Shown here in pieces: positions 15,104 to 23,398 of a stretch of DNA of 64,000 bases. The stretch comes from an uncultured archaeon (lineage in GTDB: Archaea > Thermoproteota > EX4484-205 > JAAOZP01). Position 1 is the first letter of the stretch. Each line of letters begins with the position of its first letter. The stretch is taken from assembly GCA_938045545.1 (NCBI GenBank), contig CALIBN010000002.1:8120-72119 (forward strand). The letters run 5' to 3'. Position numbers and translations under genes: made by a program. The notes beneath the pieces were generated by a model, which was not told the origin of the DNA, did no database searches, and was given only the letters and a program-made list of their open reading frames with translations.

Positions 15104-16993
15104 CTACTTCTCTACGACAGGCTTCTTTCTAGCAAGGTAGAAAGTAGTGAAGCATGAAACTATTAGAGCAACCGTGACAAGAATAAGAACTGTCCTCAAG
15201 TTAAACCCCGATCCTTTTAGCGTTACAGATTCGTTTCGAATAAGATTAACATTCTTGCTTTCAGCAGAAGTGCTGACAATATAGTTTCCAGCAGGAATGT
15301 TTGAAAAAACAATGCGGCCCTCAGCATCTGTTCTCCCGGTAGTTTGAAAAACCGATGATTCGTTTAAAGGCCTACTTGTCACGGGATGCGGAGACGGAGC
15401 TATCTTGACTTCAACGTTTCCCATTGGCTCGCCGAATTCATTGACCACGTGAACGCTTATGGAATAGGTTTCAGTCCTCAATTCAATTATCAAAGGCCTG
15501 CTTGTTATGGGAAGCGGAAACTCCGCACTCTGTTTAAGGGAAATCAGTGAGATACCCTTATTCGTTAGACTGAGATAACCCTTGAATACTTCAGCGCCAT
15601 CACTCTTTACGATGACCTCGTAATCCCCAAGATTCGGGATGATTTTCAATTCACCAGCTCCTGAGCATACAATTTCACTATTATGCTTCAACTCTACTAC
15701 TGCTTCATCCAGTAGTCCGCCTGTGGAGTTAACTGCCCTAAGCTTCACCTCTCCTAAGACGATGACTTTCGTAACATTGCTAGCCCTCAACAATCTTACT
15801 CCACTAGCCTCGAGAATCAGAACATAGACCCCGGGCGACCCTGGCTTATAGCTTACGGTGAAAACCCCGTTTGGAGAAGGATTCAGCCTAAAGGTTTCAA
15901 CCTCCCTCCCACCATTATAAACACGCATAGTTAACTCAGCGGTTTCAGGATGCGTAACACCAATAAGAACCCCGTTGACCCGTACTTCCTCCCCAATCCT
16001 GATCAGAGAGTTCTCAACCCATGCTCGCAACATGCATACGCTTGGCAACACTGTTTGAAACCTCCCGTATGCAACCGAGCCGGTGTAAGTATCGTTCCCA
16101 GCCCACTCTGCCTTTATGAAGATATCTCCGAAAACCCTCGGCTTCCAAACCATTGAGAAAACCCCTATCGTAGCATTCAACTCGGCGAAAAGAATCCATG
16201 AAGCATTGTCTAAGGAATAGTAGAGTAAAACGTTTTGAACACTAGGAGGATAAAGCCTCCCGCTTATACTAATGTTCTCAGCCCCTGCTACCACCACGGT
16301 CGGGCTTAAAGTCAGATTAAGAATCGACCTTGCTTTCACCCGAAGAGAGTACTCGGGTGTTGAAGCAGGCTCATACTCCGAGTCACCCGGAAAAAACGCT
16401 GAAATCCTATAGACGCCTAAAAGCGTAGGCGTAAAATCGAACGAGAAGCTTCCGTTTAAGGCAACCGACAACCGATATTCATTCAGAATATTTTTCGGAT
16501 CCCTAGCCTTCAAGTATAATTGGGAAACACTTGGATTAACCTTCCCAATTATCCTGACACTGGCGTTAACAGCAGCCTCGCTCGGGACACTAAGCTGGAT
16601 ACTAACCGGCTTTCTCGATGGTGGCGGGGAAGGCGGAGGAGGCGGGGGTGGAGGCGCTGCCGAAAGACGTATGTCTATCTGTACCGTACCCTCGCCCGTG
16701 GCAGATGCGCTACCTGAATAACTGTCTTTCGATGCGCTTACGATTATATTCACGGGAACCGAAGAAACAGTTAGAGTAACTGGCCCATATTTGCCGTCGC
16801 TCCCAGTAATTGTTGATTTAGAGTCTCCTCCACCAGAAATTGAAACAGAAGCGCCGACTGCAAGAGTCCCATCAGGCATATAGACATACCCCCACACGTT
16901 TACCGGTACTTGCGCCCTAACGAGACTCGTGGTGATTGAAATTACTCCGCATAGAACGATTATACAGGTTAAGTAGAAAGCCTTCTTCATCAT
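15104..16993 (-). CDS. secreted/anchored surface protein with CarboxypepD_reg-like beta-sandwich domains, poly-Pro linker and C-terminal TM anchor
   Basis: N-terminal signal-like helix, GYVYMPDGTLAVGASVSI…GSDGKYG and GRTDAEGRIVFSNIPAGNYIV carboxypeptidase-regulatory-like motifs, PPPPPPPPSPPPS linker (nt 16604-16657), C-terminal LILVTVALIVSCFTTFYLARKKP anchor. Confidence 0.7.
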   Translation of the reverse strand: MMKKAFYLTCIIVLCGVISITTSLVRAQVPVNVWGYVYMPDGTLAVGASVSISGGGDSKSTITGSDGKYGPVTLTVSSVPVNIIVSASKDSYSGSASATGEGTVQIDIRLSAAPPPPPPPPSPPPSRKPVSIQLSVPSEAAVNASVRIIGKVNPSVSQLYLKARDPKNILNEYRLSVALNGSFSFDFTPTLLGVYRISAFFPGDSEYEPASTPEYSLRVKARSILNLTLSPTVVVAGAENISISGRLYPPSVQNVLLYYSLDNASWILFAELNATIGVFSMVWKPRVFGDIFIKAEWAGNDTYTGSVAYGRFQTVLPSVCMLRAWVENSLIRIGEEVRVNGVLIGVTHPETAELTMRVYNGGREVETFRLNPSPNGVFTVSYKPGSPGVYVLILEASGVRLLRASNVTKVIVLGEVKLRAVNSTGGLLDEAVVELKHNSEIVCSGAGELKIIPNLGDYEVIVKSDGAEVFKGYLSLTNKGISLISLKQSAEFPLPITSRPLIIELRTETYSISVHVVNEFGEPMGNVEVKIAPSPHPVTSRPLNESSVFQTTGRTDAEGRIVFSNIPAGNYIVSTSAESKNVNLIRNESVTLKGSGFNLRTVLILVTVALIVSCFTTFYLARKKPVVEK

Positions 16994-19900
16994 TCTTCTA
17001 CCTCCAGCTCTACGAATCTGCGGGGAGAAGTCAAGTACACGAAGTAGCCGAAGCCTTGCTCTATTGGAAAATCGTCTCCCGGACTGCTGACTCCAGGCGA
17101 ATAGCCCTTAAACTTCTGTATTGTAGTATCCCATTTCGCTATTAACGTTACTTCAGGCCCTATGGTTTTCCCGAGGTCTTCGGCCGAATACCCTGAAGAT
17201 TGTTTAAAGACCAAGGCGATAAGATTGTACCTCTTAACCAGATTCCTGACATGGAAGCGTACAGTAAGCCAGCCGCTTGTGCTCTCAGTATCATTGGCCC
17301 TAACATAAATCGTGTGAAATCCGTCAGAATACGAGGAGGCGTTGAAGCTTATCCTGATGAACTCTATGTTCGAATCCCAAGACCCATCCATAGGGGAGGG
17401 CATTATAGTCAGAGAATTGGTATCGTCGACTGCATACCCTGCTCCAGTAATGTTGTTGGGCGATGCTATTTTAACGGTTAGATTGACGACCCCCGCTTGA
17501 ACTGTGCTGTCCGCCACTCTCAACGTTAAGCTAGTAACTATTACAGTGAAGTTGGCTGTCACAGTTCCTGGACCGTTTATAGTTGCATAAGTGTTCGGCA
17601 AATAAGGGTCAGCTATAGTTATCTTCGATGTGTTTGAAAACCAATTTTTGAAGACGTAGTCAGGGTCAGGGATGGCGGATATTTGTATTGTTGAGCCCTC
17701 GTTATACCAGTCCGAGCCGGAGGGCGATGCGGTTCCGCAGCCCAGTGGCTTAACCGTGAAGGTGACGTTATACTGTCTCTTGAAGAAGGCTTTTACAGTA
17801 GTGTTGTAACCGGGAACAGTGTAATTGTGGCTTTGGGCTCCTCCGTCGCTCCAGCCATACCAGACATACCTCGTCCCATTCTCTAGGTCCATGGGTGAGA
17901 CTGCTTCCAGCAGGTGGGTTGAGCCCTCCTCCCATGTGAAGACTACAGGTGTCGTGACAAGTTGTCCATCAACCTTCACGAGGCCTGAGCCCCGTGGGTC
18001 CGAGTCGACAGTAATCTTAGATAAAGCGTTGAACAGTGAGAGACTAGGGTCACCGTAGAGGTTGAAGCAGAACAGGTTCATCCACCAAACACTGCTATCA
18101 TGAGGCAGCATCCCCTTAGCCTCGTAGAGAGCTACGCCTGCACTAAGCTTATCCTTTAACAGTTTCTCAACGTAGCGGTACCCTATTTCAACATTATCCG
18201 CAAGCATACGGGGCCACCAGTAGCCAACTATATACCAGCTTACCCTCGAGGCTGAAACAGTTGCTACCGCACCATTCTTAAGCAGAGCATAGCCAAGGTT
18301 ATTTTCATCCTCCGGATAACCATTGTTGCAGGAGCATTGGAATGTGAATGAGGGTGCGGAGCCGTTCAATCCAGGGGCATCAGAAGAGCCGAAGAATAAT
18401 TGCCAACTCATCTCGCCGGACTCCGGCACCCCGTCACCATCGTCAAAACTCCAATACTTTCTGAAGGCCCCCTGGCTGCTCCCATGGCCGAACCAGAAAA
18501 TCACCCCATAACCCTTCTTCCACTCGTTGACCAAGTTAGCCTTCGTCAATGGTGCTGAGTAATACGGCGCGGTCTCAGGCACCGGGTCTCGTCCAGCTCT
18601 CTCATAAAGAACATAGTGCAACCAGCCTTCAGGCAGAATGTTTTCAACCGCGTATTTAGGCAAGTCTAACCCATCTGTTCTTTGCCAGCCCTGGTTATCT
18701 TCATTCGCATAGTTGCCTATAGCTACCGGAAGCAAAATCCTGTTTCTCCATCCTGTTCCTGAGAACACGTAGCTCATCGTCTTTCGGAGAACCTCATCTA
18801 GCGTAGCGTAATCATCATTGTAAACAGGTATTCTTCCCACATATACCTCCGCCGTGAAGTCTACGCCGGTATCTTGACCATATTCTCCATAATAATCGTC
18901 CCCGTCAGTATTCCAGTTTCCAGTAAGGTCAGCATAGAAATAGTCCGTGGGCGCAGTGTCATAACCCTGAACCCTCGGCCAGCACATCATCATTGGAACA
19001 TCACCGTAAGAGTCAGATGGATTACTCGGGTCATCTGGATCAGGATTGCCTATTAGAAGAACATACTTGACCCCCAGGGTTAGATAATTGTTCTTTAACC
19101 AGTTTCTTATGTTTATTGCTCTCTGCTGCCCAGTTTCCGGCCCGTAATCATCCTCTGTGATCACCCTCACCTTGAAGCCTCTAGTGTTCTGAAGATGGTT
19201 AACGTAATTGGTTAGCTCCCTGCTTCCTGTTTTTATAGCCTTCGTAGTGACTATAACATAATCATACTGGTAGTCCAATGCCTGAAAAGACGGCAAATAC
19301 CATTCTTTAGCGCTATTCCAGTTTACAAATTGTTTCTCAACGATTTTTTCAACTATCGTGTTCTTAACGGTGGCTGCTCGTCTACCTGTAAGCTGATAAG
19401 TGATCTTGAAAGATATATTCTCATGTATCTTAAGCCTCCCTTTTAACGGGTTATACTGAATGGGATTATATCGGATTCTTGCAAACACATATATTCCTCT
19501 ATTAGAAACTTGGGAAACCTCTACAGCATTATCCGGATAATATTCTCCTCTCCCGTATACGAGAAGATTCTTACCATTCTGTATCTCCTTGCCGGTACCC
19601 CAATCCACTGTTTCACCGCATGCCAAAGGTGGCGCCGGCACTACTTCTGCAGTCACATTCATCTCATAGCTTTCATCCTGTAAAACACGTATACCTATGG
19701 TGGTTGTATTCACATCGGGTGGAAGCAACACGTCTAAAAACTTAGTCGGAAGCTTAGGATTGCCAGGTTCACCCAAATAATTAAAACCATCAAGCTCAAC
19801 AAATAGGTAGTTTCCGAAGTATGATATACTTGGGCTGCCACAGCCAACATTTAATTCTATTTCACCATATCGCGTTCCAGAAACCATTATAGTAGGCATC

Positions 19901-20106
19901 CATCTTACTGAGGAAATAGCTGAGAAACAGAATGCGATCAGAATTAGAATGGCGAGTAATAAATTACTTCCTACACGCCTACTTACCAATTCTCTTCCTT
20001 TTAATATGGCTGGCAGATGGATATAAAATTTTTTAATTAAAATCTTGAAAAGACAATCTTCATTGCAGATCGACGTTGGGAAAATGTTTATAATTAGAGA
20101 AATCAA
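16990..20106 (-). CDS. peptidase family C25 (gingipain-like) cysteine protease with signal anchor, propeptide-like region, InlB B-repeat-like domain and C-terminal beta domain
   Basis: YDYVIVTTKAIKTGSRELTNYVNHL…FKVRVITEDDYG, catalytic dyad context FWFGHGSS and FQCSCNNG, C-terminal GCGTASPSGSDWYNEGSTIQISAIPDPDYVFKNWF repeat; ATGA overlap with downstream surface protein gene; true start uncertain (first 35 aa AT-rich/low complexity). Confidence 0.75.
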   Translation of the reverse strand: MISLIINIFPTSICNEDCLFKILIKKFYIHLPAILKGRELVSRRVGSNLLLAILILIAFCFSAISSVRWMPTIMVSGTRYGEIELNVGCGSPSISYFGNYLFVELDGFNYLGEPGNPKLPTKFLDVLLPPDVNTTTIGIRVLQDESYEMNVTAEVVPAPPLACGETVDWGTGKEIQNGKNLLVYGRGEYYPDNAVEVSQVSNRGIYVFARIRYNPIQYNPLKGRLKIHENISFKITYQLTGRRAATVKNTIVEKIVEKQFVNWNSAKEWYLPSFQALDYQYDYVIVTTKAIKTGSRELTNYVNHLQNTRGFKVRVITEDDYGPETGQQRAINIRNWLKNNYLTLGVKYVLLIGNPDPDDPSNPSDSYGDVPMMMCWPRVQGYDTAPTDYFYADLTGNWNTDGDDYYGEYGQDTGVDFTAEVYVGRIPVYNDDYATLDEVLRKTMSYVFSGTGWRNRILLPVAIGNYANEDNQGWQRTDGLDLPKYAVENILPEGWLHYVLYERAGRDPVPETAPYYSAPLTKANLVNEWKKGYGVIFWFGHGSSQGAFRKYWSFDDGDGVPESGEMSWQLFFGSSDAPGLNGSAPSFTFQCSCNNGYPEDENNLGYALLKNGAVATVSASRVSWYIVGYWWPRMLADNVEIGYRYVEKLLKDKLSAGVALYEAKGMLPHDSSVWWMNLFCFNLYGDPSLSLFNALSKITVDSDPRGSGLVKVDGQLVTTPVVFTWEEGSTHLLEAVSPMDLENGTRYVWYGWSDGGAQSHNYTVPGYNTTVKAFFKRQYNVTFTVKPLGCGTASPSGSDWYNEGSTIQISAIPDPDYVFKNWFSNTSKITIADPYLPNTYATINGPGTVTANFTVIVTSLTLRVADSTVQAGVVNLTVKIASPNNITGAGYAVDDTNSLTIMPSPMDGSWDSNIEFIRISFNASSYSDGFHTIYVRANDTESTSGWLTVRFHVRNLVKRYNLIALVFKQSSGYSAEDLGKTIGPEVTLIAKWDTTIQKFKGYSPGVSSPGDDFPIEQGFGYFVYLTSPRRFVELEVEE

Positions 20107-20167
20107 GACAGAATATGAACGCCAATTATTACATCCGCATCTGATCAGCCATTTGGTTGTCTATGGA

Positions 20168-20728
20168 TCAACCTTTCGGGATGGAGTCGGCAATCAGTCT
20201 GGATCGCTCAGGTGTTATTTTTTTCTCCTTAAAGAAGCCCGCCGGAGCTTCAATGGCATACTTGAAGTACTCATACGCACCATATAGCTTAGTCGGGCTT
20301 GGATCCATGCGCAGGATCCCAACTATGGCTCCGTCCGCCTTGATGAAAGCTATGTCTAGGCTTGCCTCAACGTTGCGCATATGGAATAAACCACTAACTT
20401 CATCGGGGAATATGAACAATATAAGAGTCTTCTCAATGATGCTCCTACTGATGTTCTGGAAGCCTGCTGCACGCTCATCAGGCTCATCCGCAACCTTAAC
20501 CTCAAGCTCGAGAACTTGGCCCTCGTCGTTAACAATCTGGATCCTTGCACTACTCATCTTTTGAAACTCCTCGGTGACCCTTGAACCACCATTGTTGAAG
20601 TATGCCCAAAAACAGAGTAAAACTGCAGCGGAAACCAGCAGGATTTTAACAATCTTTCCCCGTCCTCCCAAGCTCTCCACTATATTTATTAAGGCTGCTG
20701 AAAAAGCTTTAGCAGCATTTTTATACAA
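20168..20728 (-). CDS. DUF192 (COG1430) domain protein with N-terminal membrane anchor
   Basis: …LELEVKVADEPDERAAGFQNISRS…LFIFPDE…FHMRNVEASLDIAFIKADGAIVGI matches DUF192 core pattern. Confidence 0.55.
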   Translation of the reverse strand: MYKNAAKAFSAALINIVESLGGRGKIVKILLVSAAVLLCFWAYFNNGGSRVTEEFQKMSSARIQIVNDEGQVLELEVKVADEPDERAAGFQNISRSIIEKTLILFIFPDEVSGLFHMRNVEASLDIAFIKADGAIVGILRMDPSPTKLYGAYEYFKYAIEAPAGFFKEKKITPERSRLIADSIPKG

Positions 20729-20790
20729 GATGATTGAAAAACTAAATCTCTCTCCGAAACTTAGAGTTAAGTAAAAACTAGTTCCCCTAT

Positions 20791-22035
20791 TTATCCCGTA
20801 GGATTGCTAATCTTCCCCATGAAGAGAATGGCTCCCGTTTCCTTCTCCTGAATCATGAAGATGAACGGGTGGTCTGCTCTAAAGACTTTAGTCTCCGGCA
20901 TGGCAGTTAGCTTCATGGCCACGGCGGTTGCGGCGGCCGCTTCAGTCCCCTTCTCATCAACCTTAACGTAAGCCTGGTGAATAACTTGGCTGATAAACAA
21001 GTCTCTTCCGCCAGTCATTCCCGAGAAATCCCCTTCCCCAGTGAACGCGGTGGGCATTCCCAAGCTGCTTAAAGTCCCCCGCATAAAGTATTTGGTTTCA
21101 ATCTCGAATTTCGGCAGGCAGATCTCATCCAGCTTCTCCTTCTTCATTTGAGCCCTATACTCTTCAAGCTTCTCCGCTGTTAGGGACAACTCTGTCGCCT
21201 CAATTTTTTCCGGTAGTATTATCAGCATAGAGAAATTACCCCCTTTGTACGGCAGCTCTAGAATTTGCAAATCCCTCGTATCAACGAAGTTGAACCTTAT
21301 TGTTTCATTTGGATGCATATGCATCATCTGGACCTTCATGCTTCTATTCGGAGTTATCCAGAAATCCTCTTCCACGATGAGGGATTCGTTGAACGCTATC
21401 TTCCAGTCGCCTTTGAAGTAGATAGCGTTGGTTAAGACGAGCCGCGTAAGCTTGTCGAGAACCCCGGGCGGGATCAAGTCTTTAATCTTATGATTTGTCT
21501 GCTCCTCTATGAAGACGTTGATTGCTTCCCGCGACTTTTCAGCTTCATGAATAAAGTCTAAAGCTTCAGCCTTCCCACCGTAGTATTTTTCAACCGTCTC
21601 CAAATATTCTTCAAGAAACGGATAGTCCTTCTGAACCCAGAGCGCGTTTCCAGTCCTCAACTCGTATTCTCTAACAACCTTATTAATACGGTTATAGATC
21701 GCGGTGAAGTTCGGCCTTAACACACTGTTTTCCGGGAAGTTGAAAACCGTTTTCATTTCCTCCGCGGTTTTCCCCCTAGCACCCTCATATGTCATTGCAA
21801 GAGCAGAGAAGATGCTGTAAGGAGAGAAGAAAATATTGCCGCTCCCAGTTTTAACAAGTTCCGAGTAAAGCTTTAATGCGAATCGGTTATTGGCCTTTAC
21901 AACCTCCTGAACTCCCTGCGGTATTGAACCAGCATCGTTCGCCTGTGGTAGTTGAATCGGCAATAAGGGTATGGGAGGAAAATGGCTATAAGAGGTACTA
22001 TAGTAGCCAGTAAGAGAATCGTCGCAACTATCCAT
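20791..22035 (-). CDS. serpin (serine/cysteine protease inhibitor, inhibitory type)
   Basis: NAIYFKGDWK, hinge GTEAAAATAVAM, C-terminal FRADHPFIFMI are hallmark serpin blocks; Ala-rich hinge predicts loop insertion competence. Confidence 0.9.
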   Translation of the reverse strand: MDSCDDSLTGYYSTSYSHFPPIPLLPIQLPQANDAGSIPQGVQEVVKANNRFALKLYSELVKTGSGNIFFSPYSIFSALAMTYEGARGKTAEEMKTVFNFPENSVLRPNFTAIYNRINKVVREYELRTGNALWVQKDYPFLEEYLETVEKYYGGKAEALDFIHEAEKSREAINVFIEEQTNHKIKDLIPPGVLDKLTRLVLTNAIYFKGDWKIAFNESLIVEEDFWITPNRSMKVQMMHMHPNETIRFNFVDTRDLQILELPYKGGNFSMLIILPEKIEATELSLTAEKLEEYRAQMKKEKLDEICLPKFEIETKYFMRGTLSSLGMPTAFTGEGDFSGMTGGRDLFISQVIHQAYVKVDEKGTEAAAATAVAMKLTAMPETKVFRADHPFIFMIQEKETGAILFMGKISNPTG

Positions 22036-22228
22036 AATCTCTTTTTACCCATTGCCGTGAAGAGATTCTAAGACATTTAGTTAAACGTTGTGTTGTTCGA
22101 CTTTTTAGAAAAAAGGATTCGGGAAAAGAGCATGCTGTACATTTTTTCGAACAGCGTGCTTGGAGCGGGATGAATGATTTTATGAATGGAAAACAATGGA
22201 ATTAGAAAGAATCAGAAAAATAACCCGG

Positions 22229-23398
22229 TTAGAATGAAATTTCTATTCTTCTACCTGTTTCAGCCGACTTCAATATGGCGTCCATGATCACATTGTTTCT
22301 ATAACCGTCCTCGAAAGTAGCGCCCAAAGGGGCAATATCCTCATCCTTAACCACGGCCTTAATGAAGTGGTATATTTCATTTATGAAAGTATGTTCCCAT
22401 CCTATGATGTGGCCGGATGGCCAGTATCTCTCTATGTAGGGCTGAGTCTTCTCAGTCACGAGAATAGTGTTCCAGCCGCCTATCGCCTTATCCTCCCATT
22501 CCCTCAAATATAGTTTCAGCTCGTTCAGCCGCTCAAGGTTGAACTCTATTGAACCCTTCTCACCGTTAATTTCAAAGTTATTATAATTTTTCCTGCCGGT
22601 TGCGAACCTCGAGGCCTCCAAGGTACCTATTGCTCCGTTATCAAGCTCTATAACTGCCTCGAAAGCATCGTCAACCGTTACTTTACCCTTCCTACTCGGA
22701 TCCTCAGGCAGAGGCCTCTCCTCAATGAACGTTTTAACCATGCCCATTACTGACTTAAACTCCCCAACGATAAACCTTCCAAGGTCTATTATGTGGCTAC
22801 CGAGATCGCCTAAAGGACCACTTCCAGCCTCCTCCTTCCTAAGCCTCCAAGCTAATGGGAAGTTTGGGTCAACAATCCAGTCCTGAAGGTACCTAGCCCT
22901 GAAATGGTATATCCTGCCGAGCATTCCTGATTTAACTATTTGCCTGGCAAGCTGAACCGCCGGGACGAACCTGTAGTTGAACGCAACCATGGTTTTAACG
23001 CTGGCCCTCTTAGCAGCATCCCTGAGAATCCTCGCCTCCTCACCATTCCTTGCCAGAGGCTTCTCGCATAACACGTGCTTACCTTTTTCAATAGCTTCAA
23101 TCGTGGGATCCACGTGCATGTTGTTTGGGAGACAGTTGTCAACCACCTCTACTTCAGGGTCTTCAACAGCCTTCCTCCAATCAGTAACATACTTTCTAAA
23201 CCCGTAGTTTACCGCAGCATTCCTGACTTTTTCCTCAGTCCTGCCATATATTACCACCAGATCGGGTACGGCGGGTGGAGGATAGAAGAAGTGGGACATG
23301 CTTTTGAAACCATGAGAATGCGCCTTACCCATAAACGCATAACCAAGTAATGCAACACCTATTTTGCGCGGGGCGCTCATTTCCCATCGTTTTATCAT
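22229..23398 (-). CDS. Gfo/Idh/MocA family oxidoreductase
   Basis: IGVALLGYAFMGKAHSHGF Rossmann start, …EKP… and C-terminal alpha/beta domain. Confidence 0.8.
   Translation of the reverse strand: MIKRWEMSAPRKIGVALLGYAFMGKAHSHGFKSMSHFFYPPPAVPDLVVIYGRTEEKVRNAAVNYGFRKYVTDWRKAVEDPEVEVVDNCLPNNMHVDPTIEAIEKGKHVLCEKPLARNGEEARILRDAAKRASVKTMVAFNYRFVPAVQLARQIVKSGMLGRIYHFRARYLQDWIVDPNFPLAWRLRKEEAGSGPLGDLGSHIIDLGRFIVGEFKSVMGMVKTFIEERPLPEDPSRKGKVTVDDAFEAVIELDNGAIGTLEASRFATGRKNYNNFEINGEKGSIEFNLERLNELKLYLREWEDKAIGGWNTILVTEKTQPYIERYWPSGHIIGWEHTFINEIYHFIKAVVKDEDIAPLGATFEDGYRNNVIMDAILKSAETGRRIEISF

Follow-up and report, generated by a model that had tools for sequence, protein, structure and literature searches.

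In the window, the whole 64,000-nt stretch of DNA analyzed here, one serpin locus is best explained as a recently inactivated gene. It would be a unitary pseudogene early in its decay, and its product would once have been exported or anchored in the membrane; we give this reading a probability of about 0.8. A functional protein is probably absent. All coordinates below are window positions, and residue numbers are those of the 414-aa serpin-frame ORF (Table 1). The preliminary description had taken the ORF for an archaeal serpin with an N-terminal extension and no obvious signal peptide. The reading frame and its domain were confirmed, on the minus strand, which the description had not given, but the extension turned out to be an artefact of a frameshift.

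Table 1. Features of the serpin locus and its downstream neighbors in the window.
Feature	Position	Strand	Basis
Serpin-domain ORF, 414 aa	20791..22035	-	ORF listing and PF00079 match
"N-terminal extension" MDSCDDSLTGYYSTSYSHFPPIPLL, residues 1-25	21961..22035	-	Out-of-frame translation of anchor-coding DNA
51-aa ORF in the other frame, with the ancestral start	21897..22052	-	ORF listing; reads MGKKRLWIVATILLLATIVPLIAIFLPYPYCRFNY...
Hydrophobic export/anchor segment MGKKRLWIVATILLLATIVPLIAIFLPYPY	22052..21963	-	
1-nt deletion	21962/21961	-	DNA alignments against L008, L014, L015, L001, L002, L004
Putative TATA-like element TTTAACTAAAT	22075..22085	-	By eye; ATG 22052 lies 23-33 nt downstream
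Reactive-centre loop, P17 Glu361 to P7' (EKGTEAAAATAVAMKLTAMPETKV)	20884..20955	-	Hinge count and Serpin B3 register
Intact DUF192 protein, itself with a hydrophobic N-terminal segment	20168..20728	-	PF02643, E=3e-17; downstream of the serpin
Peptidase_C25 (gingipain family), ~1000 aa, propeptide and B-repeat domain	16990..20106	-	PF01364, E=1.8e-40; PF08126; PF18998

The Pfam Serpin domain (PF00079) covers residues 48-412 of the ORF and positions 2-370 of the 370-position model (E=1.5e-121). The match scores 406.6 bits, where the gathering cutoff is 27, and places the ORF in the serpin superfamily. The serpin core had been called canonical from the motifs NAIYFKGDWK and FRADHPFIFMI; both are found in the ORF, together with the full-length domain and the hinge EKGTEAAAA. 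Furthermore, the shutter and breach motifs of inhibitory serpins, which the preliminary description had wanted checked, are all there (FFSPYS, NAIYFKGDW, LPKFE, VIHQAY, DEKGTE, and NPTG). We take them to be equivalent to Ser53/Ser56, Asn186, Trp194, Lys290, His334, Glu342, and Pro391 of alpha1-antitrypsin. Among solved structures, the ORF product comes closest to Serpin B3/B4 of humans and to 8gxv, a bacterial protein labeled "proteinase inhibitor I4 serpin", with E~1e-83. In this clade-B-like affinity, the window serpin resembles other prokaryotic serpins, which are closest to clade-B-like serpins (PMC8233489). The archaeal assignment was also borne out: the nearest DNA relative is the Brockarchaeota MAG GD2_1 (locus L008, JAFNIQ010000002.1), with 94.6% identity over 14.7 kb.

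The hinge EKGTEAAAA occupies residues 361-369 (P17-P9), with GTEAAAA at 20929-20949. It matches ExGTEAAAA, the inhibitory signature (PMC8233489), with Thr at P14 and small residues at P12-P9, and is compatible with loop insertion; an incompatible hinge had been named in the preliminary description as grounds for refutation. Counting 17 from the hinge Glu makes Thr377 (20905-20907) the P1 residue, with Met at P4, Lys at P3, Leu at P2, Ala at P1', and Met at P2'. In the HMMER alignment to Serpin B3, Thr377 lies opposite Ser354, the P1 of Serpin B3. On its P' side, the window serpin exceeds alpha1-antitrypsin and ovalbumin by two residues, and the earlier hesitation among Thr, Met, and Ala as P1 arose because of this longer side; the canonical count and the HMMER register both settle on Thr, which was among the three. 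Measured from P17 up to but excluding FRADHPF, the loop is 24 residues long, which is the family mode (98/118). Moreover, its M-x-L-T-A motif is widespread in the archaeal homologues retrieved; Woesearchaeota, Pacearchaeota, Aenigmarchaeota, Bathyarchaeia, and Thermoproteota are among their source names. The motif is not specific to the neighboring protease.

The first residues had been described as polar, Pro/Tyr/Ser-rich, and not signal-like. The letters are as stated: the conceptual N-terminus of the 414-aa ORF, written in its longer form as MDSCDDSLTGYYSTSYSHFPPIPLLPIQLPQ, is polar and unlike a signal peptide. However, residues 1-25 stem from the DNA of the family's N-terminal hydrophobic segment, translated here in a frame that is not its own. 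The ancestral start codon is ATG 22052-22050, 17 nt upstream of the serpin-frame ATG 22035. It opens the 51-aa ORF, which encodes the hydrophobic segment, continues out of frame beyond the deletion until its stop, and overlaps the serpin ORF by 139 nt (22035..21897). From residue 26 on (PIQLPQANDAGS...; PIQLPQ onward), the 414-aa ORF keeps the ancestral frame. The missing base is the C of a TCG/TCT Ser codon after PYPY. The window reads TAT T-G CCG where its relatives read TAT TCG CCG; in the longer context, it has CCTTATT-GCCGATT against CCTTATTCGCCGATT in L008, L014, and L015, while L001, L002, and L004 have a TCT or TCG codon. Projection onto the intact reference CDS gives a single deletion, at reference nt 91. 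Insertion of one C at the junction yields a 1263-nt ORF of 420 aa that begins MGKKRLWIVATILLLATIVPLIAIFLPYPYSPIQLPQANDAGS..., and in tblastn with this repaired protein the match breaks into two frames exactly at the junction. The segment is polar and Pro/Tyr/Ser-rich because anchor DNA is read in the wrong frame after the deletion. Collectively, the "extension" is a translation artefact of the frameshift and not an evolved peptide. The preliminary description had also allowed for a mis-called start, with a closer upstream start that would restore a signal peptide. Such a start does lie upstream, but the 1-nt deletion intervenes, and the ancestral protein can be obtained from no single start codon in the window.

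To place the N-terminus in its family, we used as protein query a conceptual fusion of the 51-aa ORF peptide and the serpin body. The close homologues are nearly all exactly 420 aa long and cover 100% of this query. They start with MGK(K/R)RLW(I/M)(I/V)G(V/I)ALL...PLAA(M/I)F(L/F)PYPYSPTQPPQANDAGSTPQG in one frame with the serpin domain. A length of 420 aa is the commonest among the homologues (44/122 proteins examined) and is that of nearly all the closest relatives. Of the 120 best homologues, 118 combine a basic N-terminus, ~25-29 uncharged residues, and an FPYxPxxPP linker in frame with the serpin; the other two are the window's own product (P0001) and its Logan twin (P0122). P0001, the window gene as called by others, is 390 aa long and starts at an internal TTG at residue 25. 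The window copy does encode the segment, but in the other frame. At the DNA level, a hydrophobic or lipobox segment is in frame at the N-terminus in 17 of the 19 related loci that were checked; of the remaining two, L025/L026 differs only by a long upstream extension that stems from automatic first-ATG choice. A lipobox (LLLSLGC) occurs in some distant family members (L007/L028). For the extension residues of the 414-aa ORF themselves, no homologue was found, and related loci match only from query residues 13-33, depending on the locus. The N-terminal segment may be a Sec signal peptide or, more likely, a type-II signal anchor; the anchor is favored over a cleaved signal peptide because the uncharged stretch is long. 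N-terminal transport peptides are present on most prokaryotic serpins, some of which are classed as membrane anchored (PMC8233489). The orthologues are already annotated as "serpin family protein" in NCBI records, and the family is thus a known one.

An intact 421-aa orthologue, P0121 (MBO3809557.1, Brockarchaeota), lies in L014/L015 with the gene order unchanged. P0121 shares >90% identity with the window serpin, and the 420-aa proteins P0002-P0034 share 68-84%. All of these have the gene order, loop register, and loop length of the window locus; they differ in that the anchor is in frame. With a disabling lesion set against intact syntenic orthologues, the window copy shows the kind of lesion expected of a unitary pseudogene. 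The serpin of GD2_1 is also broken. Three insertions (+1) and a deletion (-2) divide it into four pieces, and the window has none of these indels; the anchor-linker junction of the GD2_1 copy is intact, and its lesions are in the serpin body. The GD2_1 pseudogene is thus like the window copy in locus, neighbors, broken frame, and near-neutral substitutions, and unlike it in its independent lesions and more advanced decay. No frameshift was found in the GFO/IDH/MocA oxidoreductase (GFO), DUF192, or Peptidase_C25 genes in any genome compared, and in the 19 kb comparison of the window with L008, frameshift indels occur in the serpin only.

The substitution pattern was analyzed with the Nei-Gojobori method on reference-projected codons, with the window, L008 (GD2_1), and L014 as the close trio. 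The dN/dS of the serpin is 0.66-1.03 in this trio and 0.81-1.03 in the pairwise comparisons with the window, where dS within the trio is small (0.04-0.05) and the window ratio depends on 34 changes. For intact orthologues in deeper lineages it is 0.08-0.11, and for the neighboring genes it is 0.04-0.15 (GFO), 0.14-0.21 (C25), and 0.17-0.39 (DUF192). Among changes unique to each trio member, the serpin has nonsynonymous:synonymous counts of 27:7 on the window branch, 19:5 on the GD2_1 branch, and 3:4 on the intact L014 branch, which carries P0121. On the window branch, GFO has 3:25 and C25 has 22:37. When the serpin counts are set against those of the pooled flanks in a Fisher test, p is 7e-6 on the window branch and 1.3e-3 on the GD2_1 branch. 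The window lineage therefore does not show the purifying selection of a functional gene. Moreover, in a 117-member alignment, the window protein is off consensus at 11 columns that are >=90% conserved, compared with a family median of 5 and with 3 in the nearest intact orthologue. Four of the 11 are near-invariant sites (A117T, T177A, T226I, and A341G), and at these sites the window residue is found in no other member. Very few changes are common to the window and GD2_1 against L014, and therefore the two copies decayed independently.

Some observations count against a pseudogene. The serpin frame remains uninterrupted over 414 codons behind a usable ATG, and some cytoplasmic protein may be made from it. 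The hinge, shutter, and breach motifs are intact, and there is one disabling lesion only.

A serpin that functions inside the cell would agree with these observations. It would be translated from ATG 22035 or from the TTG at residue 25, and its near-neutral dN/dS would reflect adaptation to a new role; housekeeping roles inside the cell have been proposed for characterized archaeal serpins (PMC8233489). We nevertheless consider such a serpin unlikely. The 27:7 ratio is what neutrality predicts, whereas constraint mixed with adaptation would not fit it; the changes also hit residues that do not vary among 117 relatives, and the four frameshifts in the GD2_1 copy indicate that the gene is dispensable in this lineage. 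The start itself also speaks against this alternative. ATG 22035 has no evident ribosome-binding context, and the residues that follow it have no homologue anywhere. The TATA-like sequence is a putative promoter element; if it is real, the transcript would be leaderless or nearly so and would begin at or close to the original ATG, which would favor ATG 22052 over 22035. The preliminary description had proposed either intracellular self-protection or a non-classical export route to explain the missing signal peptide. Neither proposal is supported, given the in-frame hydrophobic N-terminus of the relatives, the neutral evolution of the window copy, and the frameshifts of GD2_1.

The missing C could instead be a consensus artefact of sequencing or assembly, in which case the organism would truly have an intact 420-aa exported serpin. 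The source is a metagenome-assembled genome, and the lesion is one missing base in an ORF that otherwise remains open. However, the identical deletion is carried by L013, a separate Logan assembly (run ERR9287632) made by different software, and the deleted base (TT-C-GCC) lies outside any homopolymer. Between L013 and the window, there is one nonsynonymous difference, in the serpin, and there are none in three flanking genes. An error at one base also cannot account for the excess of nonsynonymous changes or for the altered near-invariant residues, and it leaves the confinement of frameshift indels to the serpin across 19 kb unexplained. The deletion is judged to be real because of the second assembly, the non-homopolymer site, and a substitution pattern that goes beyond sequencing error, and we regard an artefact as quite unlikely. 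The window and L013 assemblies might derive from one set of reads or one sample; if so, an assembler artefact is excluded but a population-level polymorphism is not. In JGI metagenomes, neither allele was matched across the deletion site (0 hits). A protein-guided metagenome scan returned 19 loci, none closer than 83% identity, and the relatives checked at 76-83% identity are all intact and 420 aa long. The scan therefore adds no second, independent view of the frameshift allele at the population level.

A bolder alternative is that the frameshift re-targeted the serpin. The product would then be a cytoplasmic inhibitor made from ATG 22035 with a de novo N-terminal peptide, and its changes would be adaptations to a new intracellular target; in a weaker variant, the 51-aa hydrophobic peptide would have a role of its own. 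The open frame and the intact hinge would permit such a product. We consider it very unlikely, given a substitution ratio at the neutral expectation, the replaced invariant residues, and a second, independently broken copy in GD2_1.

Finally, programmed -1 ribosomal frameshifting or transcriptional slippage could rejoin the anchor to the serpin body, and we hold this to be extremely improbable: the needed shift is -1 and the ORF overlap makes it geometrically possible, but the overlap contains no X XXY YYZ heptamer, even with relaxed rules, the sole homopolymer is an A5 run that lies upstream of the junction, where slippage would fail to recover the anchor, and among the relatives checked across the junction the frameshift is in none except L013, with nothing conserved. 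The scan for canonical and relaxed heptamers and for homopolymers covered the 156-nt upstream ORF. A gene with a programmed -1 frameshift was accordingly rejected as a candidate, with no slippery heptamer, a two-frame layout that is not conserved, and relatives that are single-frame. The trans-frame peptide that recoding would yield across the junction reads ...FLPYPYSPIQLPQ....

The C25 protease downstream of the serpin is intact and under purifying selection, and it has a hydrophobic N-terminal segment, in agreement with the earlier statement that the neighboring protease is exported. In every Brockarchaeota-clade locus examined, the serpin and DUF192 are syntenic. The window, L002, L004, L008, L013, L014, and L015 have the order GFO, serpin, DUF192, C25, a synteny confined to this clade, and L001 has the serpin and DUF192 without C25. 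In distant archaeal loci, the serpin is alone, or stands in tandem in a Promethearchaeum contig; no C25 neighbor was found in those checked (L003 and L005-L007). In GD2_1, a constrained and intact C25 lies beside the dead serpin. Against solved structures, the sole match of C25 is the Kgp propeptide (E=3.6e-4), from which its specificity-pocket residues are not assignable. The serpin is not an indispensable partner of C25 because L001 lacks C25, distant loci have the serpin alone, and GD2_1 has kept C25. A dedicated serpin-C25 pair was considered and rejected: co-occurrence is not strict (L001 and GD2_1), and M-x-L-T-A is common in archaea without a C25 neighbor.

Based on these comparisons, we propose the following course for the inactivated gene. 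The ancestor would have been a ~420-aa protein with a basic MGKKR start, a ~25-residue uncharged hydrophobic segment, a Pro-rich FPYxPxxPP linker, and an inhibitory serpin outside the cell. One C was then lost from the Ser codon after PYPY. The original ATG 22052 now leads only to a 51-aa hydrophobic peptide, and the serpin body is left behind the accidental ATG 22035, whose first 25 codons are anchor sequence out of frame. Substitutions have accumulated in the serpin body at a neutral rate since the deletion, unless function was lost shortly before it and they date from then. The ancestral product is thus predicted to have been a competent inhibitory serpin held extracellularly. By analogy, its original role was most likely protection at the cell surface against proteases. 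Characterized archaeal serpins inhibit subtilisin- and chymotrypsin-like proteases (PMC5297747, PMC8233489).

The window serpin is similar to the inhibitory serpins of archaea and other prokaryotes, such as Tk-serpin of Thermococcus kodakarensis, Pnserpin and aeropin of Pyrobaculum, and the "Group S" or hub-like serpins of Spence et al. (2021, PMC8233489), in its PF00079 domain of ~370 residues and its ExGTEAAAA hinge. In contrast to the known archaeal serpins, the window copy has its export segment cut off by a frameshift and evolves neutrally. The P1 proposed for Pnserpin is Val, whereas the canonical P1 in the window is Thr, with Leu at P2 and Met at P4. Miropin of Tannerella forsythia uses a lipobox. 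Like other surface-tethered bacterial serpins, it is extracytoplasmic and attached to the surface, and a lipobox also occurs in the distant L007/L028; in contrast, the Brockarchaeota clade has a long uncharged N-terminal helix in its place. Miropin (cited in PMC5297747) is likened to this clade by anchoring and not by sequence comparison.

Collectively, the chief value of these results is a correction. The apparent signal-less serpin is a frameshifted copy of an archaeal serpin that is ordinarily exported or anchored, and neither a new localization mechanism nor a new protease-inhibitor logic needs to be proposed. The locus belongs to a known and annotated family, of which it is an ordinary member that was recently inactivated; it does not represent a novel type of intracellular serpin. 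In annotation, the label of pseudogene or frameshifted gene should replace that of a 390- or 414-aa protein. The same serpin has been inactivated independently in two close Brockarchaeota genomes, while the adjacent gingipain-family protease is intact and constrained. Repeated serpin loss in prokaryotes was called perplexing by Spence et al. (PMC8233489), and this double inactivation is a small concrete example of it. It also argues that the serpin is no obligatory guardian of the adjacent C25 protease.

The serpin orthologue of Candidatus Brockarchaeota GD2_1 is also disrupted, and the genes adjoining it are intact. The number and kind of its lesions are listed in the table below, and this locus represents an independent and further advanced pseudogenisation of the same gene that is frameshifted in the window.

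Coordinates of the serpin loci and neighbouring genes
Feature	Location	Strand	Remarks
Archaeal Peptidase_C25 (gingipain-family) protein	window 16990-20106	(-)	~1000 aa
DUF192 gene	window 20168-20728	(-)	between serpin and protease
GD2_1 serpin orthologue	L008:7984-9247 (JAFNIQ010000002.1)		three +1 insertions, one -2 deletion
GFO, serpin and DUF192 genes, Nitrososphaerota/Brockarchaeota-clade contig	L001:9886-17191		
Tandem pair of serpin genes, Promethearchaeum sp. (Asgard)	L005:6617-9188		

The C25 neighbour combines a C25 propeptide with a B-repeat of the InlB type (Flg_new_2), and its C-terminal region is long. It contains GHGS (residue 540) and CSCNNG (residue 591), which resemble the catalytic His and Cys motifs of gingipains; in comparison with solved structures, the sole match was to the propeptide (Kgp, 5mun). 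Its dN/dS of 0.14-0.21 indicates purifying selection. For DUF192, 11 nonsynonymous and 7 synonymous changes fall on the window branch, and the pairwise dN/dS is approximately 0.39 versus approximately 0.18 in deep comparisons; this gene may be under mildly relaxed constraint, alongside the serpin. The L001 contig retains the GFO/IDH/MocA oxidoreductase (GFO), serpin and DUF192 genes, and tblastn found no C25 protease downstream in this region. Because the serpin and DUF192 genes are still neighbours there despite the absent C25, their adjacency may point to a functional connection.

To compare the three Brockarchaeota genomes, synonymous distances were calculated across window positions 16990-23398 against L008 (GD2_1) and L014, the locus with the intact serpin orthologue. 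The relationships conflict between genes: for GFO, L008 and L014 form the closest pair (dS 0.057 vs 0.14), whereas for C25 the closest pair is the window and L014 (dS 0.099 vs 0.17-0.21). This change of closest pair suggests recombination among the three populations.

The serpins belong to a large archaeal family, with top-match source names including Woesearchaeota, Pacearchaeota, Aenigmarchaeota, Bathyarchaeia, Thermoproteota and Jordarchaeales. The two tandem Asgard serpins share 57% and 61% identity with the window protein. Some members (P0078, L007/L028 and L006) carry a lipobox-like signal (LTGC, LLLSLGC, AVFAVAC) instead of the transmembrane-type N-terminus, and P0078, at 712 aa, is much longer than its relatives. 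The N-terminal layout of the family is strikingly conserved: in P0035-P0120 and in L003, L005 and L022-L026, MxKK is followed by approximately 25 uncharged residues and then by (L)F(L)FPYxPxxPPxADDTGSTxQG, a linker that directly precedes the serpin domain. Judged from these sequences, the conservation of this putative juxtamembrane linker is far above what a passive tether would need.
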